From an uncultured Gammaproteobacteria bacterium (GTDB lineage: Bacteria; Patescibacteriota; Microgenomatia; Levybacterales; UBA12049), in assembly GCA_964416445.1 (NCBI GenBank), contig CAYQEE010000006.1:21230-85229 (forward strand): 64,000 nt of DNA. Direction: 5' to 3'. Positions 1 to 40,630 of this stretch are shown piece by piece. How positions within the stretch are numbered: position 1 is the stretch's first letter; the number at the start of each line of letters is the position of its first letter. Below the pieces are notes generated by a model. The model did not search any database. It was not told where the DNA came from and saw only the letters and a list, made by a program, of their open reading frames with translations. The position numbers were made by a program, and so were the translations under genes.

Positions 1-777
1 GGTAAAGTTAACGGTCAATGGAGCTGATGCTGTACTGGTGTTATCGGCAGTTAAACTTGTACAGATGGGATTCTGTGCTGTTGGTGTGGGTGTTGTTCCT
101 CCCCCTCCACCGCCTCCGCCAGGTGTAACTGATGGAGCATTGGTAGGTGTTGGTGTGTTGGTTGGGGTCACAGCACCGGTAGGTGTTCCATTTAATGTTG
201 TCGTAATAATAACATTCACCGGGGCAGGAGCTGCTGAAAGAACATTTTCACTTGGTTGGTCGGTTGATGCAAGGGACAAAACTTGGGTTCCATTAGCCAC
301 TCCGATAGGTGTTCCGGTCGTAGGATCAGTTGCAGCGATAGCGTTAAAATTTAAATTAGCTATCGTTACTGGACTTCCTGCTCCTTGTATCGCTTTTGTC
401 ACTTCGGTACCTATGGACATTGTGATTGATTCCGTGCATGCAGTACCAGTACATTGATTATACGTTGGTCCCTCTAAGGTAACAGGGAAAACACTGGTGT
501 TCGGAACGATTCCTTGGCTTGTTGGAGTAATTTTAGAATTATCATAGGAAATAATCAGTTTGACAAATGAGACTTGATTTTGTCCTGGATCGAGTAATAC
601 ATTTAAACTAAATGTTGATCCTATACCTACTGGTCCGCTTAATGTTGAAAAAGAAAGATTTGTTGATGCAGCTGCTTTGGATCGATTGTTTGTTTGTTTC
701 CCAATGAGAAATATCGTAAGTGGTACCGCGACAAGGATAACAACAATAAATCCAAGTAATAAAACTTTTTTATTCAT
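1..777 (-). CDS. Partial N-terminal part of a secreted or surface protein (gene runs off the left edge). It has an N-terminal signal/TM helix, a beta-rich cohesin-like segment, and Pro/Thr- and poly-Gly-rich linkers.
   Basis: The minus-strand ATG is at 775-777 and the frame stays open to position 1. The N-terminus MNKKVLLLGFIVVILVAVPLTIFLIGKQ is hydrophobic. A G8 run and TPTNTPTPT linkers follow. The 38-457 plus ORF in the track is the antisense reading of this gene (its PPPPPPPP is the reverse of the GGGGGGGG run). Confidence 0.55.
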   Translation of the reverse strand, partial: MNKKVLLLGFIVVILVAVPLTIFLIGKQTNNRSKAAASTNLSFSTLSGPVGIGSTFSLNVLLDPGQNQVSFVKLIISYDNSKITPTSQGIVPNTSVFPVTLEGPTYNQCTGTACTESITMSIGTEVTKAIQGAGSPVTIANLNFNAIAATDPTTGTPIGVANGTQVLSLASTDQPSENVLSAAPAPVNVIITTTLNGTPTGAVTPTNTPTPTNAPSVTPGGGGGGGGTTPTPTAQNPICTSLTADNTSTASAPLTVNFT

Positions 778-957
778 ACGAGCAGTAATATAAAATCCCT
801 CCTTCTATCGTATGGTAGTTAACAAGAAGTGTCAACTACCGTAAGAGCCTTTATAGGAAACTGATACTATATTGAGAATATGATGATATTGTTTTGTCAC
901 AATTTCTTGATTGTAGGGTTATCAATCTTTTTTCTCACACTAATTTTCTATAGGGTA

Positions 958-987
958 TTGACAACTGTTTGGGAAATTTGTTATAAA
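958..987 (+). promoter_or_regulatory. Sigma70-like promoter for groES-groEL (TTGACA, 17-nt spacer, TATAAA).
   Basis: TTGACA lies at 958-963 and TTATAA/TATAAA at 981-987, about 55 nt upstream of the groES ATG. Confidence 0.5.
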
Positions 988-1014
988 TTAGCAGTCACTT
1001 ATTCACAGTGATTT
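988..1014 (+). promoter_or_regulatory. Degenerate CIRCE-like HrcA operator next to the groES promoter.
   Basis: The site reads TTAGCAGTC-N9-CAGTGATTT. The left half matches the CIRCE consensus TTAGCACTC-N9-GAGTGCTAA at 8 of 9 positions and the right half at 5 of 9. It contains the inverted repeat TCACT-N7-AGTGA. hrcA is present in this window. Confidence 0.35.
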
Positions 1015-1043
1015 TTTAGTTTCCTGTTAGAAGAAATAAAAAT

Positions 1044-1331
1044 ATGAAAATTACACCATTATTTGATAATGTTTTAATTCAAGCTGTTGAGGCAGAATCA
1101 AAAACAGCAAGTGGCATCATTTTACCTGATACGGTTAAAGAAAAACCACAAATGGGTGTAGTAAAAGCAGTAGGCAAAGGTAAAACTGATAAAGAAGGTA
1201 AATTTGTTCCGATGGCAGTTAAAGTTGGCGATAAAGTCTATTATAAAAAATGGGGAGGAACAGAAATTAAAGTGAATGGTGAAGAATTAACCATTGTTGG
1301 TCAAGAAGATATTCTTGCAGTTGTAGCATAA
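1044..1331 (+). CDS. groES: Co-chaperonin GroES (Hsp10).
   Basis: The 95-aa protein has the typical GroES mobile-loop and beta-barrel pattern (ILPDTVKEKPQMGVVKAVG...GDKVYYKKWGGTE). It sits immediately upstream of groEL. Confidence 0.95.
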   Translation: MKITPLFDNVLIQAVEAESKTASGIILPDTVKEKPQMGVVKAVGKGKTDKEGKFVPMAVKVGDKVYYKKWGGTEIKVNGEELTIVGQEDILAVVA

Positions 1332-1339
1332 CTAAATAA

Positions 1340-2980
<1,641 letters not shown>

Positions 2981-3004
2981 AGAAGATCGCTATTCTTTTC
3001 CATA

Positions 3005-3029
3005 ACCGCCACTGAAGGCGGTTTTTTTA
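3005..3029 (+). terminator. Rho-independent terminator after groEL.
   Basis: The stem ACCGCC, loop ACTGAA and stem GGCGGT are followed by TTTTTTT. Confidence 0.7.
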
Positions 3030-3084
3030 TACGAAATGAATTATTTAAAACGAATAAGTTGAGTATTTCATATATACTAGAAGT

Positions 3085-4281
3085 ATGAAAAAAGTTGCCG
3101 TATTTAGTCTTCCCGCATATGGGCATGTAAATCCGACGCTCTCTGTCGCACAGGTATTAAGCCAAAAAGGATATGATGTTATTTATTACTCCTCCGAAGA
3201 ATTTCGCGAGCGAATTGAAAAAGCTGGTATTCGATACCGTTCCTATCGTATTCAAGAACGAGTTGACTTGCGAATATCAAATGTTGTTGATATTGCAACC
3301 ACAATCCTCGCCATATCTGAAAAATATATCCCTATCCTTATCCAAGAGCTTGAAAAAGAAAAACCTGATTATATTATTCATGATCAACTTTGTTTTCATG
3401 GCAAAATTGCTGCCCATTATTTTCATATTCCTGCAGCATCATTACAAACATCATTTCTCATAACGAAACGTGTCACCTTTACCTTTCCCCAAGTAGCGCT
3501 TATGTATCTCAAGCAAATTATGCGTCAAGGAAAAAGACATATAAGAAATATGAATAAGTATCGGAAAATCGTAAGAAAATATCATCTGAAAACGCGTGGA
3601 TTTGATGATCTATTTTTAAACGAGGAAAAACTGAATATCGTTTTTACTTCACGATTATTACAACCGAAGGGAAAATTATTTGGAAAAAAATATATCTTCG
3701 TTGGGTCATCGATATCTGCTTCTTCTCGATTAGATAAAAACACGATTGGTACAAAATTAAAAACAAATAAACCAATAATTTATATCTCCTTAGGAACGAT
3801 TTTTAATAATGATTTATCTTTTTTCCATACGTGTGTTCAAGCTTTTAAAGATTCTCCCTATTTTGTTATCATGTCTATTGGTCATCGTTTCACGGAAAAA
3901 GACTTACCTGCAGTTCCTTCTAATATGTACGTCCAAAATTATGTTCCCCAACTTGAGATTCTGAAAAAAGCATCGATATTTATTACTCATGCAGGAATGA
4001 ACAGCGTTACGGAAAGTCTTTCGTTTTCTGTCCCAATGATTTGTATTCCTCAAACAGGAGAACAGATGCTCAATGCATTACGAATTCAACAGATTGGTGC
4101 TGGAGTTGTTTTGGAAGAAGAAGAGCGAACTCCAGAGCGATTGCTATCGTTAGTTACACAGATGCTCAATACAAAATCATTTGTGCAGCATATCCAACCA
4201 GTGAGAGAATCCTTGCTTGATGCAGGAGGATATGAACGAGCAGCAGAAGAAATTATCACCTATTTTCACAAGTCGAAATAA
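3085..4281 (+). CDS. GT1-family UDP-glycosyltransferase (MGT/OleD/YjiC-like).
   Basis: The 398-aa protein has a C-terminal UDP-sugar binding motif (HAGMNSVTESLSFSVPMICIPQTGEQMLNA) and an N-terminal GHVNP acceptor-domain motif. Confidence 0.8.
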   Translation: MKKVAVFSLPAYGHVNPTLSVAQVLSQKGYDVIYYSSEEFRERIEKAGIRYRSYRIQERVDLRISNVVDIATTILAISEKYIPILIQELEKEKPDYIIHDQLCFHGKIAAHYFHIPAASLQTSFLITKRVTFTFPQVALMYLKQIMRQGKRHIRNMNKYRKIVRKYHLKTRGFDDLFLNEEKLNIVFTSRLLQPKGKLFGKKYIFVGSSISASSRLDKNTIGTKLKTNKPIIYISLGTIFNNDLSFFHTCVQAFKDSPYFVIMSIGHRFTEKDLPAVPSNMYVQNYVPQLEILKKASIFITHAGMNSVTESLSFSVPMICIPQTGEQMLNALRIQQIGAGVVLEEEERTPERLLSLVTQMLNTKSFVQHIQPVRESLLDAGGYERAAEEIITYFHKSK

Positions 4282-4286
4282 CCGGT

Positions 4287-4883
4287 ATGATTCCAAAGCT
4301 TTTATTGAATGAGAAAAGTTTTACGATAACTCCGAACGATTTGCCTCTTTTTATTCATGGTGAAGTCCAATCTGGCGCATCTTATTTTAGCATAATAACG
4401 TTCGCATCGCTTGTCCTTCAGGGAGAATCGATTCTTTTTTATAGTGCATTTTTCAGAGGACTCGAAGCATTACAACAATTACTTTCTCAAGAAAAGATTG
4501 CAGTAGTGAGGGAAAATGAAGAGAGTGTAGTGATAAAAAAGAGAAAAATTCTTGCTGTGCAGAGTGGTGATGAACCACTGTTGATGCAAATGTTGACATC
4601 ATGCAAAAATACTCAACGGATTATTTGTATCAAAAATATTGAGACACTTACCAAAAATATTACTCCCTTTATTTCTCATCATAAATTCTTTATTATTTCT
4701 GGAGATATTGAGCGATACCGATACAAACAGGCGTTACTCAACGAACCATTTACGACAAAAATATTATTTTCTCACCTTCCTACATTATTGGTACAACTAC
4801 CAGCTCTTGATAGATTTCAAGCGATTTTCTTAGGTGCAACTACCAGTGGCGTTACACAAGCAACTAATCAAAAACAACACTAA
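4287..4883 (+). CDS. Hypothetical protein, co-transcribed with the GT1 gene.
   Basis: The 198-aa ORF starts 6 nt after the GT1 stop. I recognise no family. Confidence 0.45.
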   Translation: MIPKLLLNEKSFTITPNDLPLFIHGEVQSGASYFSIITFASLVLQGESILFYSAFFRGLEALQQLLSQEKIAVVRENEESVVIKKRKILAVQSGDEPLLMQMLTSCKNTQRIICIKNIETLTKNITPFISHHKFFIISGDIERYRYKQALLNEPFTTKILFSHLPTLLVQLPALDRFQAIFLGATTSGVTQATNQKQH

Positions 4884-5387
4884 TAGGTCGTACAAAAGTA
4901 CGTAATAACCAAGTATATATCTCTACCTCGTTCCTACTAAACAGACCAACAAGTACTGCAAGAATGATCATTTTTCATGATCTCTTTTTTTGGTCAGCAT
5001 GGCAAACGGAAATTTTTTCTCAAGAAGGAGAGCCTATAAAATTTTCAAATTCTCCTGTATAATTGCAAACAAGTTTATACAAAAAATCCTAGTAATCATA
5101 ATTTTCTATAAATAGAAGAACAAAATGCAGATTGGCACAAGCGAAAGTTATTACTTATTTAATTGAGAATAGATACAAAATTTACATCGGTGGATAAATT
5201 ATCAGAATCATGAAAATTGAAATGTGACAATATCATAATCTAACGAAAGGATAAATATTGATAAATTTAATAATAGCCAGTATGATGTAATTGCTGTTTA
5301 CATAGACTCAAAAGACAAAATTATTTTGGTTGATGCTTTCAAAGTTAGAGCAAGAAGTTTGTCCATACGATATTGAATGAGTTATAT

Positions 5388-5474
5388 GGAGAGGTCGCAT
5401 AGTGGTCGAGTGCAGAAGTTTACTAAACTTCCAATCCGTAAGGATTCGTGGGTTCGAATCCCACCCTCTCCGCA
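5388..5474 (+). tRNA. Type II tRNA (long variable arm), Ser-like with a G73 discriminator. The nominal anticodon is ACU.
   Basis: The cloverleaf is read directly from the sequence. Acceptor stem GGAGAGG/CCTCTCC. D-arm GCAT-AGTGGTCGA-GTGC. Anticodon stem GAAGT/ACTTC with loop TTACTAA. Variable arm AATCC-GTAA-GGATT. T-arm GTGGG-TTCGAAT-CCCAC. CCA is not encoded. Confidence 0.8.
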
Positions 5475-5508
5475 AACAGTCATATAGTTTGAAACTTGGT
5501 TTCTACTT

Positions 5509-6417
5509 TTGTATAATCCGTATTTAATGGATCGTAAATACGAAAAAAGAACAACAGGTTTTTTAACTCCTGATAATTGGCTGACTACATATTCAACTGC
5601 AGTAAATAGAACTGCTATGGCTCCTGTAGGAGTAGATCCAATTATGCAAAGATTGCTCATTCAGGCTACAACATTCTTACCGCAACAAACCAGATGGCGA
5701 GATGTTTTACATTCAAGTTTAAATCCATCTCAAAGACTAAAGCTCGCATCAGACATTTCACATTTTCATATAAGTATTTTTGTACCGTTATTGGGTGAAG
5801 GTTTTGACACAAGAACACTTTCTTCAAGACAAATTGAAATATTGAAAATGGCGTCACATCATTACTTTGTCGAACATCAAAGTCCTTCAGAAGTACCAGG
5901 TATCTATTTTTCTTCTTTCTCTGAACAAGACATACAATTAGGAATAATCTATCAAACTCATATAGAGAATAAAATATGGAAAGGAGGAATAATTGGAGGA
6001 ACGTTTAAAGCATTACTTAATTTAATCAATAATGTAGAAGGACTAAACGGCAGAGCACTACTAAAATATAAACAAGTGGATTCTCATGATTCTTTATTAA
6101 CCGAAGACAACGCTCGTCGTCTTGATGAATTCTCTACGAGCGCAGAATACGCCGAAATTATTGGAATGACATTAAACAGGTATGATGCTGCAATATCCGC
6201 ACTCGATAGTGATGAAGGGAGGGAAATTGCACTCAGACAACGAAATGCATTTAATGCCCACCTTGGGGGTAATCCGCGTACAAGAGCAACTGATGAATTA
6301 GAAAAGTTGAATACCTTAGTAAAAAATGCTGTATTAGGAATCCAAGATGATTTACCAAATGTTGCAGTAATACAATTATTAAAAAATATGATAAATCTAA
6401 ATAACTTTAGTAAATAA
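5509..6417 (+). CDS. Hypothetical protein (no recognisable family), immediately downstream of the tRNA.
   Basis: The 302-aa ORF has no TM segments and no motif I recognise. Confidence 0.5.
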   Translation: MYNPYLMDRKYEKRTTGFLTPDNWLTTYSTAVNRTAMAPVGVDPIMQRLLIQATTFLPQQTRWRDVLHSSLNPSQRLKLASDISHFHISIFVPLLGEGFDTRTLSSRQIEILKMASHHYFVEHQSPSEVPGIYFSSFSEQDIQLGIIYQTHIENKIWKGGIIGGTFKALLNLINNVEGLNGRALLKYKQVDSHDSLLTEDNARRLDEFSTSAEYAEIIGMTLNRYDAAISALDSDEGREIALRQRNAFNAHLGGNPRTRATDELEKLNTLVKNAVLGIQDDLPNVAVIQLLKNMINLNNFSK

Positions 6418-6600
6418 AAAATGTTATTGTATTATTAATTTTTTTTTAATCTGATGTTCTTGAATACAAAATTCACACCTCGCTTAAATTATAGTAGTAA
6501 GAATGCTAGATTTGCTTGTTTCTTCTCCAAAACTTCCATAAATACGTTCCAACCTGGTCAATCAGACACCGCACTTTAAAGATCACTACAATGTTCGTAA

Positions 6601-6906
6601 ATGAGAATGCCCTTTGAAGCTTTTTGGTATAATCAATGCATGAGTATAGAGGATTTAGAAAAAAGAATTGAAAGAATTGAACTGAGGAACGGAAATGTAG
6701 AAGCAAATAAAGCATGGGAGACGAGTATTTCAAGAAAAATTGTCCTTGTGCTTATGACGTATTTAGTCATTGCTTTAACTTTATTGTCAATACATCATCA
6801 AGACCCTTGGATAAATGCGCTTATTCCTGCAATTGGTTTTTTCTTGTCCACCTTATCACTACCACTTATCAAAAAATACTGGATAAAACACGTATATCAC
6901 AAATAG
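6601..6906 (+). CDS. Small two-TM membrane protein of unknown function. The likely true start is 6640 (MSIEDLEK...).
   Basis: The protein is 88-101 aa with two hydrophobic helices. The promoter overlaps the ORF start given in the track. Confidence 0.5.
   Translation: MRMPFEAFWYNQCMSIEDLEKRIERIELRNGNVEANKAWETSISRKIVLVLMTYLVIALTLLSIHHQDPWINALIPAIGFFLSTLSLPLIKKYWIKHVYHK
6625..6633 (+). promoter_or_regulatory. Extended -10 promoter (TGgTATAAT) in front of the small membrane-protein gene, possibly giving a leaderless mRNA.
   Basis: TGGTATAAT at 6625-6633 ends about 6 nt before the in-frame ATG at 6640. Confidence 0.4.
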
Positions 6907-7009
6907 CATTTTAGAGAATTGACTAACCTCATGGAATATTTTCTGTTAATGAAAATAACTGGACATTTTGCAAAACTTGCACTGATGTAACTAATTTATT
7001 GAATAGATT

Positions 7010-7900
7010 TTATGATGAATTATTACCTTGTTTTTTTCCAATGCCTAATAATACCATGCCAAAAAACATAGGAATAATTGAGCATAACTGCCAGACAGTT
7101 GGTACATTTTGGAGAAATATCCATGCACTGAAAAGCGTTATGAGTGGTGACATACTTGATAACGCATTGGCTTTGACGACGCTGATTCGGTGAATTCCTT
7201 CTACCCATAATGCTTTGGAAAGACCGAGTAAGAAAATTCCATTAATTGCGAGAAATAAAAATGAGTTTTTTATACTTCCATACGAAAAGGTATTGTTGAA
7301 TGCACCTGCGAGCAGAAAAATAACGGACGCACTGATAATACTCCGGATAAACATGATGGTGTCGCTACTCACTTTCGTTCGCGCTTTTCTGACATAGAAA
7401 TTGCCAAATGGAGCAGTGAAAGCAGCAAGGAGAATAAGCAGATCACCTAGTTGAAATGTATGGATATTTGGATATAAAACAATACAAGCTCCTAGTATCA
7501 TTAGCGAAGCACCAATGATATGAAGAAATGGTAACGGTTGTTTTTTCCATACTTGAAAGAACAGGTAGCTAAAAAAAACTTCTGTTAAAGCAACAATACT
7601 CGCGTTACCTGCACTCGTTGATCGTAATCCGAAATAATAAAAAAGATAATAAAGGATACCCAGAAAAAATGTTGCGAATAGAATATCTCGTAATGCCGCA
7701 ATATTAGTGATCTCAAACCATTTCTTTTTCAGCGTAAGCATGAATGCGAAAAAAACTCCTGCAAGCAACGTACTGATTGCGAGCGATACCAAAGGGGATA
7801 CTTTCCCATAGGATAAAATAGTTATTACGGGAAATAAGCCCCATAACGCCGTTTCACCTAAAATAAAAAGTTCTCCTTGCTTTTCATTATTCAATTTCAT
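7010..7900 (-). CDS. EamA/DMT-family transporter.
   Basis: The 296-aa protein has about 10 TM helices with a duplicated EamA-like arrangement. Confidence 0.75.
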   Translation of the reverse strand: MKLNNEKQGELFILGETALWGLFPVITILSYGKVSPLVSLAISTLLAGVFFAFMLTLKKKWFEITNIAALRDILFATFFLGILYYLFYYFGLRSTSAGNASIVALTEVFFSYLFFQVWKKQPLPFLHIIGASLMILGACIVLYPNIHTFQLGDLLILLAAFTAPFGNFYVRKARTKVSSDTIMFIRSIISASVIFLLAGAFNNTFSYGSIKNSFLFLAINGIFLLGLSKALWVEGIHRISVVKANALSSMSPLITLFSAWIFLQNVPTVWQLCSIIPMFFGMVLLGIGKKQGNNSS

Positions 7901-7930
7901 TCCTTTAGTTTATCAGATATACTACTATGT

Positions 7931-9055
7931 ATGCCCGAACAAGGTTCAAAAGGAATATTTGCAAATTGGAAAGCACGTTTGTTGAGACCTCCCACCAATG
8001 ATAGATCGACCCCAACTGTTTCTCAACGAAGGTGGTATATTGAAGGTATCGCTCCAGAATCTTTGCCTGTTGGTATTGAATCAATTCGTCTGAAAAATCT
8101 TCCTATTGGTTGGCAACAATTACCAACGCTCGCGAAATCAATAAATGCGTTAAAAGAAGAGCCTTTTGGAGCAGGATTTGAGCTTGCTCAACTAAAACCT
8201 TTAGAAAAGGAGGCGATTGTCATTCCAATGATTGCAAGTGTGGTAGCAAACCATGCGGATCCTGCGATACCTCTCAATTTACCTAACTCTGAAGAAGTGA
8301 AAACAATTAAACCTTGGCTAAAAAGAGTATCAGTTTTTGTTGGGAGATTTTCGAATGGTCTCGGACATAGGTTTGATCGGTTTATAGAAAAGAAGGGACA
8401 ACAGACAGTTCAAAAAACTGGTGAGAAAATATTCGAGGCAGCTCACGCACTTGGACAAACAGAGAATCCACAAAGCAGATTTGTTACTGAAGTAGCTCAA
8501 TTATATACTCGTTTAACGCAACCAGAAACGTATTTTGATTTTGAAGAAAAAGAGCGTTCAATTGAGCAAAAGATTAGCGGGTTAATTGGTCAAATGGATC
8601 GTGCAAAACGGGGAAAGCCGTTTGATAGCGATTGGTTTTCAAAGAAGCACTTTCCGCTCTTGGCAAATGTTTTTGCCGTCGTCGGATTTCCTCCAACGTC
8701 TTTGTATATTGAATCTGGTAACGTTGGTATCGTTGGCGCTGAATTGATGCAAGGAATCGAAATATTTTTACGCCAATCAGATGTCTCAAATATTCCGCAA
8801 GCACCACTACCAACAGAGTTTGATTTATTTAATATGAATACGTGGATGAGAGGACTTGCTGAGTTATTTAAAGCAGGTCAGTTAGAAAAAGTGAAAAGAG
8901 AACTGCCAAGTGTTTTGTCTCAAGTACGTGAAGTCCTTCCTCATGATGGAAGACAATTTGAACAAGAGATCTATGGGATTGCAAAAAATGTTGTTGCTCT
9001 CAAAGCAAAGGGGATAGAAGATCATGCATTAGTTAATGGACTTTTTGCTGCATAA
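7931..9055 (+). CDS. Hypothetical soluble protein (no recognisable family).
   Basis: About 374 aa from the ATG at 7931 (MPEQGSK...). The track start at 7877 overlaps the divergent EamA gene. Confidence 0.5.
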   Translation: MPEQGSKGIFANWKARLLRPPTNDRSTPTVSQRRWYIEGIAPESLPVGIESIRLKNLPIGWQQLPTLAKSINALKEEPFGAGFELAQLKPLEKEAIVIPMIASVVANHADPAIPLNLPNSEEVKTIKPWLKRVSVFVGRFSNGLGHRFDRFIEKKGQQTVQKTGEKIFEAAHALGQTENPQSRFVTEVAQLYTRLTQPETYFDFEEKERSIEQKISGLIGQMDRAKRGKPFDSDWFSKKHFPLLANVFAVVGFPPTSLYIESGNVGIVGAELMQGIEIFLRQSDVSNIPQAPLPTEFDLFNMNTWMRGLAELFKAGQLEKVKRELPSVLSQVREVLPHDGRQFEQEIYGIAKNVVALKAKGIEDHALVNGLFAA

Positions 9056-9115
9056 TGATTAAGAAAAATCACACGATGACTCAGATATGCAATACACTTT
9101 TGCTATAATCACCGC

Positions 9116-9550
9116 ATGGAAATAAAAAAAGTAGATCTTCTCGCTGAAGCAAAAACGTTACTTACCCTAGATAATAAAGCATTTCACCGCGATTATGATT
9201 TACCTTCAAAAGATACCAACGAACAAATAGCATATTTGCGAGATTGTGAAGTATATATTGCCTATGAGCACGAGCAACCAGTTGGATTTTTTGCCTATAA
9301 ACTCTCCGAAACGCATTGTGATCTTAAGTCCATAGGAGTAATTCCAGAAAGGCAAGGGAAAAAGTACGGAAAGGCAATGATGAAAAAATTATTGGATATA
9401 ACCAAAAATAACACAATAACTCTTGTTACCCATCCAAAAAACAGTGTTGCAATCCGCATGTATTTAACCTGTGGGTTTCATATATACGGATGGAAAGATA
9501 ACTTCTATGGTGATAATGAGCCAAGACTCTTGATGAAATTAACCAGATAA
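9116..9550 (+). CDS. GNAT-family N-acetyltransferase.
   Basis: The acetyl-CoA binding motif ERQGKKYGKAMMKKLL is present. Confidence 0.75.
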   Translation: MEIKKVDLLAEAKTLLTLDNKAFHRDYDLPSKDTNEQIAYLRDCEVYIAYEHEQPVGFFAYKLSETHCDLKSIGVIPERQGKKYGKAMMKKLLDITKNNTITLVTHPKNSVAIRMYLTCGFHIYGWKDNFYGDNEPRLLMKLTR

Positions 9551-9614
9551 CTTTTCAAGCAATCGTAACTCTTTTTCTTCATGTCTCTTTTGCGTATAAT
9601 GAGATGAACGGCTA

Positions 9615-10295
9615 TTGTTGGAAGATTATATGGCAGAAGTAAAAATAGAAGCATCTTGGAAAACGGCATTAGAGTCTGAGTTTACAAAGCCATATTGGGA
9701 AGCGTTAACGACATTTATTCGCCATGAATATACCACACAGGTGGTTTTTCCACCTCCGCGAAATATTTTTCGAGCGTTTGATCTGTGTCCTTTTGCATCC
9801 GTAAAAGTTGTTATTGTGGGGCAAGATCCATATCATGGAGTCCGTCAAGCAAATGGATTATCGTTTGCCGTTAATGATGGTGTCGCTCTTCCGCCATCGC
9901 TTAAAAATATTTATCAAGAAATTCGTTCAGATATAGGTATTACTCCATCCTCTTCAGGAGATCTTTCTCGGTGGGCAACGCAAGGAGTACTTATGCTCAA
10001 TAGCGTTCTTACCGTTCTAGCAAATAAACCAACATCGCATAAAGGAAAAGGATGGGAACAATTTACGGATGCAGTCATACAAGCACTCAATGCTAAACGG
10101 AAACATATTGTCTATATGTTATGGGGAAAATATGCACAAACAAAAGGAATGGTTATTAACACCGAACAAAATTTAGTTCTTGCATCTGGACATCCGTCTC
10201 CGTATTCAGCAAATCTCTTTTTTGGGAATCATCATTTTAGTAAGTGCAATGCGTATCTGGTACAACATGGCATGACCCCTATTGATTGGCATTAA
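9615..10295 (+). CDS. ung: Uracil-DNA glycosylase (family 1).
   Basis: The protein has the water-activating loop GQDPYHG, LMLNSVLTV, and GHPSPYSA (family-1 His-containing C-terminal loop). Confidence 0.9.
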   Translation: MLEDYMAEVKIEASWKTALESEFTKPYWEALTTFIRHEYTTQVVFPPPRNIFRAFDLCPFASVKVVIVGQDPYHGVRQANGLSFAVNDGVALPPSLKNIYQEIRSDIGITPSSSGDLSRWATQGVLMLNSVLTVLANKPTSHKGKGWEQFTDAVIQALNAKRKHIVYMLWGKYAQTKGMVINTEQNLVLASGHPSPYSANLFFGNHHFSKCNAYLVQHGMTPIDWH

Positions 10296-10334
10296 AAAAG
10301 CATTATCAACAGAACATATGTTCTTCTTGTTGAA

Positions 10335-10859
10335 TTGTTCTCCTCATACTATAATTTCACTATGCAACCACTGATCATTCGAAAAGCAACCGCAGATGAT
10401 CTTTCGTACGTGCAACAGTTATGTGATGAGCTTATCCAGGTGAGTAATACCTTTGATCCTCATTATAATCTTCGATGGTCTTTTGAACCTGATGGAATTA
10501 AGTATCTTACTTCTCGAATTTTTGATATACAGTGCGTTTGTTTTCTTGCGATTTGGGAGGAGAGGATTGTTGGCTATGTAACAGGTGCAGTGTTACCCAT
10601 ACGTTTATGGAGGCCGATCAAACAAATTGAGCTTGAAAATTTATACATACAAAAAAACTATCGCAAAAAGGGAATTGGAACACGATTAGTGAAAGAGCTT
10701 TTTTTATGGGGAAAAGAACAGAAAGCACAACGGGTTGTGGTGACTACTGAAGCAATTGATAAGCATGCGATTGCTTTTTATCAAAGAAATAACTTCTCAC
10801 CCTTACATCTAAAATTAGAAGCAGTACTTGATACAGACGAAGCGAATGGATCTTCTTAA
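10335..10859 (+). CDS. GNAT-family N-acetyltransferase.
   Basis: The motif IQKNYRKKGIGTRLVKEL is present. Confidence 0.7.
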   Translation: MFSSYYNFTMQPLIIRKATADDLSYVQQLCDELIQVSNTFDPHYNLRWSFEPDGIKYLTSRIFDIQCVCFLAIWEERIVGYVTGAVLPIRLWRPIKQIELENLYIQKNYRKKGIGTRLVKELFLWGKEQKAQRVVVTTEAIDKHAIAFYQRNNFSPLHLKLEAVLDTDEANGSS

Positions 10860-10870
10860 AAGGTGAGAAG

Positions 10871-11167
10871 TTATTTCTTACGAAATGAAGGCCCGATTTG
10901 GCACGGAATAACTTCATAAGTTTCCCAGACGTTATTAACGACATATGGTTCTTTTTTAAGCCACGCCTCAACCTCTTTTTGAGATGGAAACTCAACAATC
11001 ATAACTGATCCTTGCATATTTCCGTGCTCATCTAAGAGTGCCACACCCATATGATAATTTCCTGCAGCTTTCATATTCTCTCCCAGTGCAATATGTTCAT
11101 CTCTCACTGTTAATCGTCTGGCAAGCCCATCCTTTTTATAATCTCGAGCAATAATAATAAATTGCAT
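10871..11167 (-). CDS. YciI-like protein.
   Basis: The 98-aa protein has a YCII-type fold pattern with conserved His/Asp (ALLDEHGNMQGSVMIVEF). Confidence 0.6.
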   Translation of the reverse strand: MQFIIIARDYKKDGLARRLTVRDEHIALGENMKAAGNYHMGVALLDEHGNMQGSVMIVEFPSQKEVEAWLKKEPYVVNNVWETYEVIPCQIGPSFRKK

Positions 11168-11186
11168 AACCTTAGTTCAACAAATA

Positions 11187-12041
11187 TTATATCGAAAAAT
11201 TTCGGAATACCTCAAGAATGCCATGATCATCCACATGAGGAGCAAGAAAATAATTTCCTTCACCTTTTGTCGTAATCATTTCTTTTAACTCATTTGTTGC
11301 ATTTCCCATGGCAGCAACGTACTGGCACAATGACATAAATTGCCAATCACCAATGTTATCACCAACGCCTAACACATGGTCAAAAGTAAGCCCGAGACTT
11401 TGTATGACTTCTTGTGCACCGTAGGTTTTTGAAATACCTGACGCGGTTATCATTGCCACCTCAATTGGTAATAATGCTGGGTTGCTGCTCCATGTTGTCG
11501 TTGTTGTTTTCTGATAGCGGGTAAGAATTGTTTTAATGGTATTTTTTTGGTGGTTGTTATGAGAGAAGGCATTAATGCGAATAATATTTTCATTTTTTGC
11601 TAACTTCGTTAGATCATCAGAGAGGTGTGGTTCTTGTTGCATAAAAATTATTCTTTTTTGCGTGAGTGCTCCAGATTGACTTGTTTGGACAAAATAGTTT
11701 TTGTCAGTAAAAACTTCGAGATAGATATGAGATTTGATAAATGCAGTAAGTAATGCGTGAACAATTTTTCTATCGAAGGAATGTTTACTCAGTACCTTAT
11801 TTGCGAGCGGATCAATAATGAGAGCTCCATTATCCGTAATATGAGGATTATGCAACTGGGCATGGTGAATCGTTGGTAATTTAGCAAAATAATAGCTTCC
11901 GGTACATAAAATTACGGGAATACCTTTCTGCCGAATTTGTTTCAATTTGTCAATAACAGAACGATGAGGATTTGGGTAATTGATACCTAATTGTGAACCG
12001 ACAAGAACACCATCAACATCAAGAATTACTGCTTCAATCAT
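11187..12041 (-). CDS. HAD-IIB (Cof-type) phosphatase.
   Basis: The N-terminal ILDVDGVL nucleophile motif and a C-terminal GDNIGDWQF (HAD motif IV, GDxxND-like) are present. Confidence 0.7.
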   Translation of the reverse strand: MIEAVILDVDGVLVGSQLGINYPNPHRSVIDKLKQIRQKGIPVILCTGSYYFAKLPTIHHAQLHNPHITDNGALIIDPLANKVLSKHSFDRKIVHALLTAFIKSHIYLEVFTDKNYFVQTSQSGALTQKRIIFMQQEPHLSDDLTKLAKNENIIRINAFSHNNHQKNTIKTILTRYQKTTTTTWSSNPALLPIEVAMITASGISKTYGAQEVIQSLGLTFDHVLGVGDNIGDWQFMSLCQYVAAMGNATNELKEMITTKGEGNYFLAPHVDDHGILEVFRNFSI

Positions 12042-12104
12042 CGCAAATGCTTTCGTATTTTAACAAAGTTTAAAAGAATTAGTGAATGTACTCTGTAGCA
12101 TTAT

Positions 12105-12476
12105 TTGTCATTGGAGTATACTATGAGTATGAAAAAAAATTATCAAGAGTTAACGAATGAAATTGCCCGTTCAGGGGGGTTACAAACAGACTTACGTCCG
12201 TATTTTGATCCAATCTATACTTCATGGATGCAGGGAGATTTCTTACGAAAGATATGGCATTCGAAAAAGTATCCATCTATTAAAATTTTTGTAGGTTTAT
12301 TTTTCTTTATTCTCCCAAGTAGTATATGGATTATCGGAGGATTTTTTTCTCAAGCAGCACGTAATGAAGCTTTGGTAGGAACATTATTTCTTCTCTCGCT
12401 CGTAAGTATGTATGGATATATTGGAATACAATTACTACTTCGTGGGCTTCGTGATCTGAGAACTACAAAAAAATAA
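12105..12476 (+). CDS. Small membrane protein, hypothetical.
   Basis: The 123-aa protein has two or three TM helices. Confidence 0.4.
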   Translation: MSLEYTMSMKKNYQELTNEIARSGGLQTDLRPYFDPIYTSWMQGDFLRKIWHSKKYPSIKIFVGLFFFILPSSIWIIGGFFSQAARNEALVGTLFLLSLVSMYGYIGIQLLLRGLRDLRTTKK

Positions 12477-12477
12477 T

Positions 12478-14292
12478 TTATTCAGTTGTCTCAGGTGCTT
12501 TGTTCTTTCGTCCCATTTTTTGGGTGATGTTTATAAAGAATATTTTTTTTGCAAGGAGAAAACTCCAAAGCAGCCCAATACCAAAGAGGAGAAATGAAAT
12601 ACCAGAAATGAGATTACTGATTTTTCGAAGGGGTGTATCAGTCAGTTGTAACGTAATCGTGTGTGCACCTGCTTGGGTTGTTAACTCAATAAAACCAAAT
12701 AAGTTATCAGATCGAATTGGTGTTTGTTTTCCATCAACATATGCTTTCCAACCAGGATATTGATGGACATAAAAAATAAACTGAGTGGGAACTTCAGAAA
12801 CAAGGCGGTATTCTTTTTTCGTGGTGTTGTCCGTAAAACGAGTAATATGCGCTTTTCCTGATATAAGTTTAATTTGACTTTGTGGTGTTGAAGCTTTATC
12901 AGGATTGATAATAGCACCTTTAGGCATGTATCCTATTTCAGGAACGGTCGATGAAAAATCTTGCGTTTGTGCCATATCAAACGAAGAGGCAAAACTGCTT
13001 AACCATTGCGCCGGATGCAAATACCACGCTGATAACAGAAAAACGATGATGACACTCACAAAGTAGATGCTATATTGCACTACGGTGTTTCGAATATTCC
13101 AGAGGAGATATCCCCCAAGAATTGCCGAAAGAAAAATGGTAACCGATAAAAATCGCCAAGGGTATTGAATAAGCGCAACATACGGGTTACTTTCCCAAAT
13201 TCGTTGTGTTACTGGTAATGTTAAACAACATACGAGAACAAAAATGCTTATCGTGCCAACAAGCAATATATTCATTGCCTGCGTTTGTTTTTCCCACCGC
13301 CACCAGAGAATACCAATTGCTGTAAAAAAAATAACCCAATTACTTATACCGACTTGAAAGGATAAATCATCTGAACAATCGGGAACGGAAATACCATATC
13401 CCCAATTGGGAGTAAATAATTGTTGGATGCAGACAAAATGTTGATGAAAATCATAGTACCCACTATGGAGATACATTGGTTGAATAAAGGATTGTTCAAA
13501 TACAAGAGGAATAAGAAAAAAAGATGATAAACACGCACCAAAAAGAAAACTTCCGAGAAACAAAAATAACAGCATAAAATTCTTATCAACAAACGCAAGA
13601 TAGAAAAGGTAAAAAAAGATAAACGGCAAAAACATAATAAGTGTGGGAGGATGGGCAGTCAAAAGACTCGCTACGGAAAGACTTGTTAGGAGAAAATAAA
13701 ACAGTTTTTTTGTCGTTGCATATCGTTTCATTGACCAAAAAAGGAAAGGGATAATGGTTAGTGCTAAAAATTCAGGAAGCGCTGCGCGGACAAAAATATC
13801 CAGAATATGATAGGGAGCATAGAGGTAAATAATCCCTGAAAATAATGCAGGAACTTTTCCAAAATATTCTTTTGTAAATGCATACATTGTGATGCCCGAT
13901 AATACCCAGAGAATACCAACTTCTATTTTAAGAGACGTAGTATTTGCGAACCCAAGCATTCGAGGAATTTGGAACAAATAGTAAAAAAGTGGTTGATAAA
14001 AAGTGAATAAGGGTTGATTAAAACCAGGATGTACCCAATCAATCCAACGAACAGGAATTTGTCCGGCGATAACTGCTTTCGTAAAAAGAAGGAGATAAAT
14101 AACATGGGTTTGAATATCATGTCCTGAAAAAATACCATCGTGGGAAAGCAGATAAAAGGGAATAAGAAACAGAAAAAGAGACAAAAAAATACCTGCTTTT
14201 AGCATAACAAGTAATCCAGAAGTATTTTTTTGTTGCGCTGGTTTTTGTTGTGTCCGATAGAGTTGTTGCTGGTGTTTTTTCTTGCGTTTCAT
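12478..14292 (-). CDS. Large polytopic membrane protein of unknown family, GT-C-fold glycosyltransferase-like (possibly YfhO- or PTPS-related).
   Basis: The 604-aa protein has more than 12 TM helices in the N-terminal two thirds and a soluble C-terminal domain. A GHD...H loop follows TM1. Confidence 0.5.
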   Translation of the reverse strand: MKRKKKHQQQLYRTQQKPAQQKNTSGLLVMLKAGIFLSLFLFLIPFYLLSHDGIFSGHDIQTHVIYLLLFTKAVIAGQIPVRWIDWVHPGFNQPLFTFYQPLFYYLFQIPRMLGFANTTSLKIEVGILWVLSGITMYAFTKEYFGKVPALFSGIIYLYAPYHILDIFVRAALPEFLALTIIPFLFWSMKRYATTKKLFYFLLTSLSVASLLTAHPPTLIMFLPFIFFYLFYLAFVDKNFMLLFLFLGSFLFGACLSSFFLIPLVFEQSFIQPMYLHSGYYDFHQHFVCIQQLFTPNWGYGISVPDCSDDLSFQVGISNWVIFFTAIGILWWRWEKQTQAMNILLVGTISIFVLVCCLTLPVTQRIWESNPYVALIQYPWRFLSVTIFLSAILGGYLLWNIRNTVVQYSIYFVSVIIVFLLSAWYLHPAQWLSSFASSFDMAQTQDFSSTVPEIGYMPKGAIINPDKASTPQSQIKLISGKAHITRFTDNTTKKEYRLVSEVPTQFIFYVHQYPGWKAYVDGKQTPIRSDNLFGFIELTTQAGAHTITLQLTDTPLRKISNLISGISFLLFGIGLLWSFLLAKKIFFINITQKMGRKNKAPETTE

Positions 14293-14293
14293 A

Positions 14294-17080
14294 TTACTGT
14301 ATTGGTTGAATCGTATTTAACAGTTGATAAAACGATGCCATTTGTGGCGAATCTGCAGGGGATGCCGTTATTTCATAAATTACAGTATCTTTTTGTAAAA
14401 CAAAAAAGAGCAATGCTTTTCCTGTTGGTAATCCGTAAATTTTTACTGTGGTTTGGAATCCAGGAATAGTATAGGGTTTTGTAGCAAGAAGCACACCTGT
14501 TGGAGGTTGCAAAGAGGAAGTTGCAAGGTACGAATCAACTGTTTCTTGACTGGTGAGTTGGTGACCATGAATAGCTATGGATAATTGGGGATTTGTTACA
14601 GTACTAATATCCCCATTTGCATAAGAGAAACCAGGAGGAACTTGGAAAGAGAGAACATTTTGTTTATCAGTAATTGAAGTCCACCCATTTTGTGTCGGTC
14701 CATTCCCTGTTTGAGAAATTGGTTGGTTAGTTAGGTGAGCTAGTTCGTTTCGTGCATTTTGATAAATTTCTTGAGATGAATCAGTTAGTTGTAACACTGC
14801 TTTAAACTCATTCACTGCATTCTGGATAGCTCCTGATTTTTCATACGATAATCCCAAATTATAATGAATTTCAGGAGTTTGTGAGGTATGCAGTAAGGTA
14901 TTTTGATAGAATGAAATAGCTGAACTATATTGATTCTGCTTAAACATATAATTCCCAATATCACCGAGAAGGTTTGGTTCATATTGGGAAATAGCTAGTC
15001 CTTTTTTAAAACTCGCAATTGCTTGCGGAGAATTTCCATGATCAATATACCAATCGGCAAGTGTTTGGTAAGCATAAATATAATCATCTTGAATATTTTG
15101 GAAGGCACCAATATAATTCCGTTCAATATAAAAAGGTGACGTTTGCATTGCTGAGTGGATTTGAAACTGAAAAGCGTTGAAATTTGGTTGTTCGGTGCTT
15201 GAGGCGTATACAACTCGTAACGTGAGTCCATTGGGTATTAGCTTAAATCGATTATCTAATTGGAGTTCGCCTGATGTTGTCCCGGCAAGTGCTGAAGCAC
15301 GAAGTGCCAGGGGAGTAATATAAATAGGGTGTTTTGCAATATTATCTGCAATTAACGTGTTCATTGCTCGATTATATTCATCAAAATGTTTGTATTGAAT
15401 AATATTTTCAATTTTTGAAGAAACATACACAGGTGTTGCATGACGGATATCATCACGATACCATTTATTCACATAAAATGTATTTACCGTGATGGGAGTA
15501 ATATCGCGACGATAAATATCTGCCTCATGCAGATAATAGGTAAGTGAATTAAAAAAATCTCCTGAACCGAGAATTATAGCATTTTTTTCAAGAGGAAAGT
15601 ATAAATTATATCCATAATCTTTGCTGTAATAATGATGGCTTCTATTCAAGGCACCAATCCATACAAGAAGCGGGAGAATGCAGAGACATGTTAAGAGAAT
15701 TTTTTGGACAGGTGTTTTCGTGATGTATTGGAAAGAAAAATAAAACCCAATTCCAATAAAAATTGCCATAAAAATCCAAACAGGAATAAACCATGATTCT
15801 TGATTTCCTGAGAAATATAATCCCGCATAAGTAACATCGGTCAATGGAGCGAGTAATAATAGGATAAGTATTGTCTTATTTTTTTTCCACAAAACATACA
15901 TTCCCAGAGGAGCCAGAAGAATAACAAATGGAGTAAATTGAATAAAGAAGAGATAAAGAAAATAGAATACTGATTGAATAAAAACTAACGGGGATCCTGT
16001 AAAACCGTTGATGGTATTTGTTTGGGGTTCATAAATATTGAGTCCTTTTCCTTGAAGTTGTCCAATAAAAAGCGGGAGCGTTTGTGGATTTCCCCAGTTT
16101 ACAAAAGGATAACTTCTTGCACGAACGGGAAGATAACTATATATTACCAAAACAGCAAGAAAAAAGCTTACTCCTACGATTAGTAATTTTCTTTGAGTTA
16201 AACTGTCACGAAAGATAAATAATAAGTAAAGGTAAATCGGGAGAAATACTGCGATTGTTGGGTTTGCACCAGTACCAATTCCGAAAGCAACAGCAATAAG
16301 GATAATCCATCGAAATATTATTGCATCAAATGTTTTATCAGGATTTTTTTGCATTTTAAAAGCTACATATTTTTGTAATAATCGCAAGCAAATGTATACA
16401 AAAATAGTCAGTAACGCATAGGTAAAAATGAAGGCTTCGGTATTTTCTGATTGTGACCAATATTCGTATGAGAATGCTAAGCTCATTGTTGCAAAAAATG
16501 CTGCAAGATGGGAAAGATAGGGATGACTTGTTGCGACTGATTGCGTTTCCGTATCTCCAGTGCTTGTTAAGAATTGAGTATCGATGAGAAGTAAAATAAT
16601 GTTGTACAAAAAGAAGAGTAAAATAAGCGACCAAACAATTGTAAATAATTCCAGTCGGGTTAATACGGAAGCAAATGGTAAAATGGCGAAAAAGTGAGAA
16701 ATAAGCATATACAGAGGAAATCCGGGAGGATTGGGAATACCGAGTGACTTTGACGCTGCAATCATTGTTCCAGAATCAATCCAAAGAATTGATGGAGGTT
16801 TGGTGAGAAAGTAGACAATTCCAGCAAAAATTAAAATAAGAGGAAGAAGATAGCGTATATGCACTATAATGAACAAGTATATTTTTTGAAAAATTCTTTC
16901 ACATTGTTCTGAAAATAAAATCCAATACTTTCTTATTGCTTCCATAATTAAGATGCGGTGAGCTTTGTTACTAGTTATATCATATATTGCTGAGTGAGTG
17001 GAAAATATTTTTACGTATTCACGAAGTCTACTAAGTACTGCTGTTTGCACTCCAATCCTGAGGGCAGTTAGTCTTTTCAT
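14294..17080 (-). CDS. DUF2723/TMEM260-like GT-C membrane protein with C-terminal TPR repeats (putative protein O-glycosyl or mannosyl transferase).
   Basis: The 928-aa protein has the N-terminal signature WIDSGTMIAASKSLGIPNPPGFPLY and about 11 TM helices. TPR-like repeats follow (YYSLGNAYQK-type: HYNLGLSYEKSGAIQNAVNEFKAVL). Confidence 0.65.
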   Translation of the reverse strand: MKRLTALRIGVQTAVLSRLREYVKIFSTHSAIYDITSNKAHRILIMEAIRKYWILFSEQCERIFQKIYLFIIVHIRYLLPLILIFAGIVYFLTKPPSILWIDSGTMIAASKSLGIPNPPGFPLYMLISHFFAILPFASVLTRLELFTIVWSLILLFFLYNIILLLIDTQFLTSTGDTETQSVATSHPYLSHLAAFFATMSLAFSYEYWSQSENTEAFIFTYALLTIFVYICLRLLQKYVAFKMQKNPDKTFDAIIFRWIILIAVAFGIGTGANPTIAVFLPIYLYLLFIFRDSLTQRKLLIVGVSFFLAVLVIYSYLPVRARSYPFVNWGNPQTLPLFIGQLQGKGLNIYEPQTNTINGFTGSPLVFIQSVFYFLYLFFIQFTPFVILLAPLGMYVLWKKNKTILILLLLAPLTDVTYAGLYFSGNQESWFIPVWIFMAIFIGIGFYFSFQYITKTPVQKILLTCLCILPLLVWIGALNRSHHYYSKDYGYNLYFPLEKNAIILGSGDFFNSLTYYLHEADIYRRDITPITVNTFYVNKWYRDDIRHATPVYVSSKIENIIQYKHFDEYNRAMNTLIADNIAKHPIYITPLALRASALAGTTSGELQLDNRFKLIPNGLTLRVVYASSTEQPNFNAFQFQIHSAMQTSPFYIERNYIGAFQNIQDDYIYAYQTLADWYIDHGNSPQAIASFKKGLAISQYEPNLLGDIGNYMFKQNQYSSAISFYQNTLLHTSQTPEIHYNLGLSYEKSGAIQNAVNEFKAVLQLTDSSQEIYQNARNELAHLTNQPISQTGNGPTQNGWTSITDKQNVLSFQVPPGFSYANGDISTVTNPQLSIAIHGHQLTSQETVDSYLATSSLQPPTGVLLATKPYTIPGFQTTVKIYGLPTGKALLFFVLQKDTVIYEITASPADSPQMASFYQLLNTIQPIQ

Positions 17081-21358: not shown

Positions 21359-21829
21359 TTATTCTTTTTTATCTTGAATATATTTTTTTAGTGTGTAATC
21401 TCTGGCAAGTCCTCCGGAACCAATAATTGCGCCCGCGATGAGAGTTGGATCTACTTCGATTTTGAAAAGAACTGATCTTTGGTAATTTTTTCGGAACCAC
21501 TCTGCCATCATATCCAACATATTTTCTGTAGGTTGGATTGGCAGAGAGAGTTCAATGAGAGGAAGTGCTGATATTGTCTCTTTGAGAGAAGTAATAAAGT
21601 TTTGCATATCGGTACTATTCGTTTTATTGATTGCATTTGCCGACATAAGTTGTTCGAATTGTTCTTTTTTTTCGTATGACATTATTGTTTTTAAATAAGA
21701 ATCTAGATCCATTTTTTGTGAATAGATACTATTGACCAGTTCATCAAGTTGCCAAAAAAACGCATCAGCGTCTGCTTTTGTCCGAACTAATTGCGTCAAG
21801 TTTTCTTCAGCCAATTTATATGGTGTCAC
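21359..21829 (-). CDS. atpH: ATP synthase delta (OSCP) subunit.
   Basis: The 156-aa protein is in the delta position. Its C-terminus IAGAIIGSGGLARDYTLKKYI is OSCP-like. Confidence 0.7.
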   Translation of the reverse strand: MTPYKLAEENLTQLVRTKADADAFFWQLDELVNSIYSQKMDLDSYLKTIMSYEKKEQFEQLMSANAINKTNSTDMQNFITSLKETISALPLIELSLPIQPTENMLDMMAEWFRKNYQRSVLFKIEVDPTLIAGAIIGSGGLARDYTLKKYIQDKKE

Positions 21830-22499: not shown

Positions 22500-22505
22500 A
22501 TACTT

Positions 22506-40306: not shown

Positions 40307-40630
40307 AAAAAAACACCCATTTCGGGGTGCACATAAACATATTCTCATCAATTATGATAAGAATCCATTCTTTCTTTTATCCCGACTTTACGGTCGCTAC
40401 TAGATATTCACTAGTTCCTGCAAGAAATCTTGCTCGTAGAGTTTACTACCGATTTTGACTTACACAAAACCCCGAAAGAATATCTAGATAGTAATAGCTT
40501 ATGATAAAAAAGTCAAGATGAAATGAAAGATAGACAAGAAAGAATGAGAAGAAAAGGTCAAAAAAAGTCTTCCTGTTATTTTTCCCATTGTTCATGCGAA
40601 ATTGCGGCACACTAAAAATAATATAGGTTA

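Follow-up and report, generated by a model that had tools for sequence, protein, structure and literature searches.

A tRNA gene surrounded by proteins of no recognizable family raises the question of whether its neighborhood was acquired as a mobile element, acts as one functional module or belongs to the native chromosome. Such a block lies at positions 3085-9055 of the 64-kb stretch of contig CAYQEE010000006.1 (assembly GCA_964416445.1) analyzed here, which we call the window. A first-pass annotation of the sequence had described a tRNA-centered group of accessory-looking genes, pointed to the 3′ end of the tRNA as a potential integration site and proposed small-molecule glycosylation and export as a possible function. 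We consider it fairly probable that the block is native chromosome of a low-GC Patescibacteria (candidate phyla radiation, CPR) bacterium, not an integrated element, and that it carries about five independent transcription units.

The hallmarks of integration at a tRNA 3′ end were absent. Across all 64 kb, matches to the 19-mer TTCGAATCCCACCCTCTCC (allowing 3 mismatches) and to the 13-mer 3′ core (allowing 2) were confined to the tRNA itself, and general repeat finding in positions 1-16000 returned direct repeats at chance level only. Among the scanned open reading frames (ORFs) of the window, comprising every ORF of at least 120 aa except groEL and a few nested ones, we detected no integrase, resolvase, transposase or phage family, and no PHROG match assigned a phage function. 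The composition of the block is native as well. Its GC content (0.33-0.40) and third-position GC content (GC3; 0.21-0.32) fall within the range of the housekeeping genes, and its codon bias (Karlin) falls within the spread of the 48 other genes, including those for ATP synthase, DnaK and PNPase. The proposed integration thus fails on integrase content, attachment (att) repeats and composition alike.

The window has a GC content of 36.4% and contains one tRNA and one riboswitch (ARAGORN, Rfam). Outside the block it encodes the F-type ATP synthase, MetRS, HrcA-GrpE-DnaK-DnaJ, ClpB, NusA, IF2, PNPase, RNase J, FtsK and YceG, together with a sortase, a type IV pilin-like protein and several PMT/GT2/GT4 envelope glycosyltransferases. 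On these genes and the nearest GroEL matches, we treat the window as chromosome of a CPR organism, probably close to the Microgenomates. The block is flanked by the groESL operon on one side and by a run of small housekeeping-type enzymes (GNAT, UDG, GNAT, YCII, HAD) on the other. All features proposed in the first-pass annotation were recovered at or near the positions it gave:

3004-3023 (+): terminator-like hairpin of 7 bp with 5 GC pairs, followed by a T run, closing the groES-groEL operon (scan)
3085-4281 (+): GT1 UDP-glycosyltransferase of the MGT family, GT-B fold, 398 aa (Pfam, NCBIfam TIGR01426)
4287-4883 (+): unk198, a near-orphan protein of 198 aa, 5 nt 3′ of the GT1 stop codon
4884-5387 (no strand): AT-rich spacer of 504 bp, 29% GC (sequence, promoter scan)
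5388-5473 (+): class II tRNA-Ser with anticodon ACU (ARAGORN; Rfam RF00005, 54.8 bits)
5489-5517 (+): promoter-like site TTGAAA-17-TATAAT (11/12 matches), the best-scoring of the region, 10 nt 5′ of the unk296 ATG
5527-6417 (+): unk296, an orphan soluble protein of 296 aa; the ORF reaches upstream to TTG 5509 (302 aa)
6601-6906 (+): ORF for a small membrane protein with two predicted transmembrane (TM) helices, 101 aa (88 aa from ATG 6640)
7010-7900 (-): EamA/DMT-superfamily transporter, 296 aa (PF00892 in two stretches, 119.9 bits), divergent from unk374
7931-9055 (+): unk374, a member of an all-alpha family, 374 aa with a disordered N-terminus and a core of ~330 aa; TATACT box at 7918-7923

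Because the terminator-like hairpin ends the groES-groEL operon, the GT1 gene would open a new transcription unit. Boxes resembling a -10 element (TATACT, TATAAT or TGGTATAAT) lie 6-10 nt 5′ of the start codons of GT1, unk296, the two-TM protein and unk374, as well as of P0002, a relative of unk198 encoded at locus L217. The box-to-start spans are, in this order, 3073-3085, 5512-5527, 6626-6640, 7918-7931 and, in L217, 165-179. The TATACT boxes of GT1 (3073-3078) and unk374 are placed 6 and 7 nt 5′ of the respective ATG codons, and the two-TM peptide indeed has the extended -10 element first ascribed to it, TGGTATAAT at 6626-6634, before the internal ATG 6640. No Shine-Dalgarno sequence was obvious at the starts with close -10 boxes, and the pattern of these motifs looks like one of frequent leaderless or near-leaderless mRNAs. 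In the arrangement that we propose, GT1 and unk198 would form one unit, with unk198 probably co-transcribed, and the tRNA gene would have promoter-like sites of its own. The strongest promoter-like site would drive the gene for the orphan 296-aa cytoplasmic protein, whose mRNA would probably be near-leaderless. The small two-TM protein would make a fourth unit and the divergent pair of EamA/DMT transporter and unk374 a fifth.

Proteins without a Pfam family make up four of the six in the block, compared with 8 of the window's other 48 proteins (Fisher p = 0.018). These four (unk198, unk296, the two-TM peptide and unk374) gave no significant match in Pfam, NCBIfam or PHROGs, and nothing significant in PADLOC, where unk374 had one marginal match (E 0.028). 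Searches with unk198, unk296 and unk374 against PDB sequences, run with single sequences and with profiles, returned no match, and tblastn found none of the three in 50,697 phage records. Structural homologs that would assign the unknowns to housekeeping families were not found either. The impression of accessory-looking, novel proteins therefore stands: unk198 has one distant relative, unk296 has none, and unk374 belongs to an uncharacterized family. That all four lack a recognizable family is correct for curated libraries and incorrect for unk374 beyond them, as at least 113 clusters form an uncurated family to which this protein belongs. That genes without a family are so dense here would reflect fast-evolving, lineage-specific content typical of CPR genomes, with no sign of a shared pathway.

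Conservation of the neighborhood was assessed by GroEL-anchored synteny across GTDB species representatives, with 80 loci listed, among which the genome of the window itself did not appear, and the eight nearest relatives compared. Among the matches listed, the nearest GroEL proteins were at most 79% identical and all derived from metagenome-assembled genomes (MAGs); those with informative names had identities of 75% for Gottesmanbacteria UBA5942, 74% for a Patescibacteria group bacterium, 73% for Parcubacteria SURF_62 and 63% for Daviesbacteria. Of the 14 proteins encoded at 3085-17080, only UDG was encoded within 10 kb of groEL in any of the eight genomes compared, namely in the Daviesbacteria MAG, where the groEL-UDG interval holds entirely different genes (VanW, a solute-binding protein and MurB). 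Since gene order is not conserved at this distance, the comparison neither supports nor refutes a variable presence of the block. The window proteins are singletons at 90% identity, and exact-protein look-ups led only to the same population in three Logan runs. The Logan assemblies of these runs (SRR12266071, SRR12266072 and SRR12266074) match the window base for base, tRNA included.

The GT1 protein matches UDPGT (77 bits), EryCIII-like_C and Glyco_tran_28_C in Pfam, and the NCBIfam model TIGR01426 ("macrolide family glycosyltransferase") covers residues 7-393 of its 398 with 339.6 bits at a cut-off of 260. Its best PDB sequences are 10zg_A, 7vm0, 8h5d and Bacillus YjiC 6kqx (E 1e-61 to 1e-69), followed by OleD/OleI. 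In the alignment with 10zg_A, both the N-terminal G-H-x-N-P motif with the catalytic His and the C-terminal H-x-G-x-N-S...G-(D/E)-Q motif for UDP-sugar binding are aligned and conserved. By sequence, the protein is a member of the MGT family (YjiC/OleD-like). From what is known of this family, it would take a hexose from a UDP-sugar donor and attach it to a small lipophilic molecule.

The gene for unk198 starts 5 nt after the GT1 stop codon on the same strand. Translational coupling of the two had been proposed. The genes adjoin and are probably co-transcribed; they do not overlap, and coupling itself is only inferred. Among 5.8 billion proteins, P0002 was the single relative of unk198 (27% identity, E 3e-8). 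Both share the motifs L-P-L-x-I-H-G-x3-S-G-A-S, I-L-F-Y-S-A-F and K-N-I-E-T. An AlphaFold2 (AF2) model built from the two sequences is weak (pLDDT 58, pTM 0.57) and displays an alternating beta-alpha core, in which the HG-x3-SGAS segment occupies the place of a Walker A motif (GxxxxGK[ST]). It reads G-E-V-Q-S-G-A-S, with the Lys replaced by Ala in both members. As this replacement departs from a canonical P-loop, we term unk198 a probable degenerate P-loop-like domain; on the model, it may be a degenerate RecA/ASCE P-loop-like domain that would not carry out canonical NTP hydrolysis. At the P0002 locus, the upstream gene is unrelated and not a GT1, the spacer measures 120 nt, and P0002 has its own -10 box. 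L217 also contains, at 75-150 and just upstream of P0002, an isolated T-arm-like fragment (GGGGGTTCAATTCCCTC, then CACCCCCTGCCA), at which no complete tRNA or tmRNA was found. A partial direct repeat of this fragment (CCAACCCCTGCCAAA / CCACCCCCTGCCAAA) occurs ~55 nt earlier, an arrangement that recalls an att remnant.

The 500-bp AT-rich non-coding gap noted upstream of the tRNA is real and measures 504 bp at 29% GC. It is not exceptional: GC content is 26-36% in the window's other spacers, five of which span 379-1158 bp. A weak hairpin with a U-run lies just 3′ of unk198 (stem 4966-4971/4977-4982, T run 4983-4991), and between it and the tRNA the promoter scan marked promoter-like sequences at 5258-5286 and 5297-5324. 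A hidden noncoding RNA in the gap was considered and rejected, as the folding z scores of -0.29 and -0.20 for the two strands showed no excess. Over the same gap, Rfam at E ≤ 1 returned only the tRNA and two sub-threshold matches overlapping it (RF04351, RF02223).

The Ser-like tRNA was confirmed as a class II tRNA-Ser by both ARAGORN and Rfam. It has a long variable arm, discriminator G73 and no encoded CCA, and its sequence is identical in three independent Logan assemblies. Its acceptor stem, G73 and long variable arm, together with a T-arm that matches many tRNA-Ser genes exactly, point to charging with serine. The anticodon loop TTACTAA is enclosed by a perfect 5-bp stem (GAAGT/ACTTC), so that positions 34-36 read ACU. 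This does not correspond to the usual bacterial tRNA-Ser anticodons, GCU for AGY and NGA for UCN. Bacteria normally use G34 (GCU) for AGY codons, and A34 otherwise occurs mainly in tRNA-Arg(ACG). By Watson-Crick pairing, tRNA-Ser(ACU) would read AGU as serine, the standard meaning of this codon. Deamination of A34 to inosine would make AGA misread, and AGA is common in the window (AGU 240, AGA 164, AGC 82). A literature search for bacterial tRNA-Ser with A34 or ACU yielded nothing pertinent.

The 3′ 25-mer of the tRNA, GTGGGTTCGAATCCCACCCTCTCCG, is present without mismatch in more than 120 IMG/VR contigs. These contigs contain 86 tRNA genes with the 25-mer, of which 85 are tRNA-Ser, and in 82 of the 86 the anticodon is TGA, CGA, GCT or GGA. 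One has ACU (1308-1399 of L123, a 185-kb phage contig) and two have AGA. A bacterial tRNA-Ser with A34 that recurs in three assemblies is a small, testable oddity of decoding. If ACU were the sole AGY decoder, an A34 tRNA would serve a two-codon box, which is not expected in bacteria.

The ORF downstream of the tRNA, first reported as a 302-aa protein, is present; its start is most likely ATG 5527, which gives the 296-aa form on record. The probability of a 296-codon open frame arising by chance at 36% GC is ~5e-10 by our own estimate from base composition, and its GC3 of 0.205 is typical of genes in the window; we take unk296 to be a real gene. A word-indexed search of 5.8 billion proteins found no relative other than itself. 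The idea that unk296 is a diverged copy of the unk374 family was discarded (hhalign probability 0.1%).

The predicted EamA exporter gene is present at 7010-7900 (-) with both repeats of PF00892. Its product has two tandem EamA domains (E 1.2e-34) and ~10 TM segments. Matches to TIGR00950 and YddG are weak and far under their cut-offs; as the protein remains under every equivalog cut-off, no substrate can be assigned. A second EamA-family transporter is encoded at 39365-40351 (-), and a recent duplication of the two genes was rejected at only ~30% identity over 105 aa. Directly 5′ of this second gene lies an FMN riboswitch (40365-40483 (-), 83 bits), and a riboflavin kinase gene (38961-39359) adjoins it on the other side. 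The combination of riboswitch, EamA gene and riboflavin kinase suggests a riboswitch-controlled DMT-type riboflavin importer for flavin salvage.

For unk374, which is on record as a 374-aa protein from ATG 7931, a word-indexed search returned one relative, a Kaiserbacteria protein of 538 aa (35% identity) that is extended at its N-terminus and bears a TM anchor at its C-terminus. A full HMMER scan using the profile of these two sequences then revealed 113 clusters at E ≤ 1e-3, including 51 at E ≤ 1e-30. Members are mostly 320-410 aa long. Their polar N-terminus varies, and ~330 residues form a conserved core; among the closest members, five have a hydrophobic anchor at the C-terminus. No Pfam domain covers the core in any of 65 members. 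E271, L280 and P337 are invariant, and A102, P180, E187, Y192, P242, G275, F279, R307, L329, G340 and G361 are at least 90% conserved. The AF2 model obtained with the 65-sequence alignment is confident and all-alpha (pLDDT 88.1, pTM 0.82) and had no structural match in the PDB or BFVD. The invariant E271 could form a candidate active or binding site with the near-invariant E187, Y192 and R307. Speculatively, conserved Glu, Arg and Tyr residues in a compact helical domain would suit an enzyme or a protein that binds a ligand.

The gene is stand-alone in every context that we examined. A locus search with a 17-sequence subset alignment gave three metagenome loci. Relatives adjoin HSP20/GPI/glutaredoxin/LepA (L084), Xer-like recombinase and S15/PNPase genes (L210) or SecA/HAD (L215), lie between the 16S and 23S rRNA genes (L207) or follow phosphoglucomutase (L208); MurJ is also among the CPR-like contexts. 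One member, P0040 (L213 8001-8975, GCA_053533115.1), is encoded near a split RpoB and an Rpb5/RpoH gene, an archaeal signature, and all other members examined are in CPR-like bacterial contexts. Two of these loci are unusual in themselves. L207 (1-8331) is a CPR contig in which the 16S and 23S rRNA genes are more than 5 kb apart, and its spacer contains three tRNAs, a LAGLIDADG endonuclease gene and a cupredoxin-like gene besides the unk374 family member. In L210 (5661-7820), an intein bearing a LAGLIDADG domain splits the 719-aa Xer-like tyrosine recombinase beside the unk374 member (precomputed Pfam).

The unk374 family is uncharacterized; it resembles the 106 published CPR-enriched hypothetical protein families (Meheust et al. 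2019, PMC6744442) in being conserved and unannotated and in recurring in CPR-type contexts. We regard it as possible, if doubtful, that unk374 represents an undescribed family with a new all-alpha fold found only in CPR bacteria and DPANN-like archaea and, separately, that tRNA-Ser(ACU) is the sole AGY decoder. If true, the presence of unk374 in both domains would suggest that episymbionts exchange genes or that its function is bound up with a host-dependent lifestyle.

Several observations weigh against the reading of the block as native chromosome. The family-less genes are significantly concentrated and flank the sole tRNA of 64 kb, and a random scatter of lineage-specific genes would not obviously give such a concentration around a tRNA. 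No close relative is available to show that the block is stably inherited, and the fold assignment of unk198 comes from a low-confidence model (pLDDT 58). Furthermore, the Logan contigs (L001-L003, L085 and L086) all break at the tRNA, with the left end at 5476/5477 and the right start at 5448. The 30-mer 5448-5477 comprises the T-arm, the acceptor 3′ strand and 4-5 trailing bases. The contig ends overlap by k-1, as at a branch of a de Bruijn graph, so this 30-mer occurs in another context as well in those metagenomes, and there may be strain-level variation at the tRNA. The breaks in all three runs and the clustering of orphan genes would suit an old, ameliorated island whose integrase and distal att site have decayed, or an active insertion hot spot at tRNA-Ser. 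Either unk296, the TM peptide, EamA and unk374 would have arrived by site-specific integration, or the window would represent an "empty" allele, with the element carried by other strains. The occurrence of the 25-mer in more than 120 viral contigs, 34 of 120 without a called tRNA containing it, as for att sites or contig-end fragments, fits this as well, as does the position of the unk198 relative just downstream of the T-arm-like fragment. Against it, a search for att repeats as short as 13 nt, with 2 mismatches allowed, gave none, the ORFs scanned across the 64 kb include no recombinase or mobility gene, and composition is indistinguishable from that of core genes. GT1 and unk198, moreover, lie 5′ of the tRNA, a position at which integration at a 3′ end would not leave cargo. 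The contig breaks have a simpler account: the 25-mer occurs in many tRNA-Ser genes from many organisms, so that a k = 31 graph branches there, and one of 120 IMG/VR contigs with the 25-mer also shares the next four bases. We therefore consider an island or hot spot improbable.

Two further proposals assign a joint function to parts of the block. GT1 and unk198 might form a two-protein unit, with unk198 as partner, chaperone or regulator of the glycosyltransferase. They share a strand, are separated by 5 nt with no promoter or terminator in between, and are followed by the weak hairpin and U-run only downstream of unk198; the preservation of HG-x3-SGAS in the only two unk198 members indicates that the gene is under selection. 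This proposal is nonetheless unlikely, given that the gene upstream of P0002 is unrelated and separated from it by 120 nt, that P0002 has a -10 box of its own, that GT1 reaches 63.9 bits against a cut-off of 440 for the activator-dependent subfamily TIGR04516 and that the fold call for unk198 is of low confidence. Nor are the known GT1 activators (DesVIII/EryCII type) P-loop domains; they resemble P450 proteins and measure ~400 aa, which also counts against such a unit. The wider glycosylation-and-export module of the first-pass annotation, in which GT1 would modify a metabolite or xenobiotic, EamA would export the product and the unknowns would be accessory, draws on the facts that EamA/DMT proteins are metabolite transporters, that MGT-family enzymes act on small lipophilic acceptors according to family knowledge and that the two genes are 2.7 kb apart. 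They are, however, on opposite strands with separate promoters and with the tRNA gene and two other genes between them, and most genes of the block have their own -10-like boxes. No biosynthetic or regulatory gene is present, EamA or GT1 adjoined the unk374 relatives in none of the seven loci examined, the unk198 relative is not beside a GT1 gene, and there is no co-occurrence evidence of any kind. With separate units and no conserved linkage, we reject this module as very improbable. Native chromosome with about five independent units hence remains our preferred explanation.

Two other regions of the window deserve mention. The window begins inside a gene for a surface-type protein (1-770 (-)). 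The protein has a signal or anchor at its N-terminus and a linker rich in Pro, Thr and Gly, G8 run included, which raises local GC content to 47%; a 139-aa plus-strand ORF at 38-457 is a shadow of this gene. At 21816-23393 (-), upstream of atpH-atpA-atpG-atpD, two ORFs of 227 and 295 aa have no Pfam match and, judged by position, probably encode highly diverged ATP synthase b and a subunits.

In summary, we judge the region to be ordinary by the standards of CPR genomes; its two modest curiosities are the unk374 family and the ACU tRNA-Ser. As a whole, the block is of little significance, and these two parts are the ones of some value; the unk374 family, with a confidently modeled core of ~330 residues, at least 113 clusters and no structural counterpart in PDB or BFVD, would reasonably merit structure-function work on CPR and DPANN organisms. 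The block also illustrates that a run of unannotated genes beside a CPR tRNA should not be taken for an island or a pathway without att sites, recombinases or conserved linkage.

Compared with known systems, GT1 resembles the MGT family (YjiC, Streptomyces OleD/OleI; TIGR01426) in its full-length match above the curated cut-off and in its retained motifs. It differs from other enzymes of this family in being encoded in a CPR genome with no biosynthetic cluster around it. Towards the resistance-specific models Mgt and OleI it scores 183 and 157 bits, far under the cut-off of 700, so that a macrolide-inactivating role is not implied. The GT1-unk198 pair bears a loose likeness to the auxiliary activator proteins required by some antibiotic GT1 enzymes. 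unk198 itself departs from the ASCE/RecA-like P-loop NTPases (HerA/FtsK/VirB4/TrwB and SF2 helicase cores) in its length of only 198 aa, its replaced Walker A Lys and the absence of a sequence-level match. The EamA protein shares its two repeats with EamA/DMT transporters of the YddG, RhaT and RibN/ImpX types. Like islands and prophages targeted to tRNAs by a tyrosine integrase, which duplicate the tRNA 3′ end, the block has poorly conserved genes beside a tRNA whose 3′ 25-mer is carried by many viral contigs; unlike them, it has no integrase, att duplication, compositional shift, mobility gene or phage gene. Many CPR-enriched families are membrane proteins (PMC6744442), whereas unk374 lacks an N-terminal signal or TM segment and has a C-terminal anchor in a subset of its family only. 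Taken together, the orphans of the block match the heavy lineage-specific gene load described for CPR genomes (PMC6744442).

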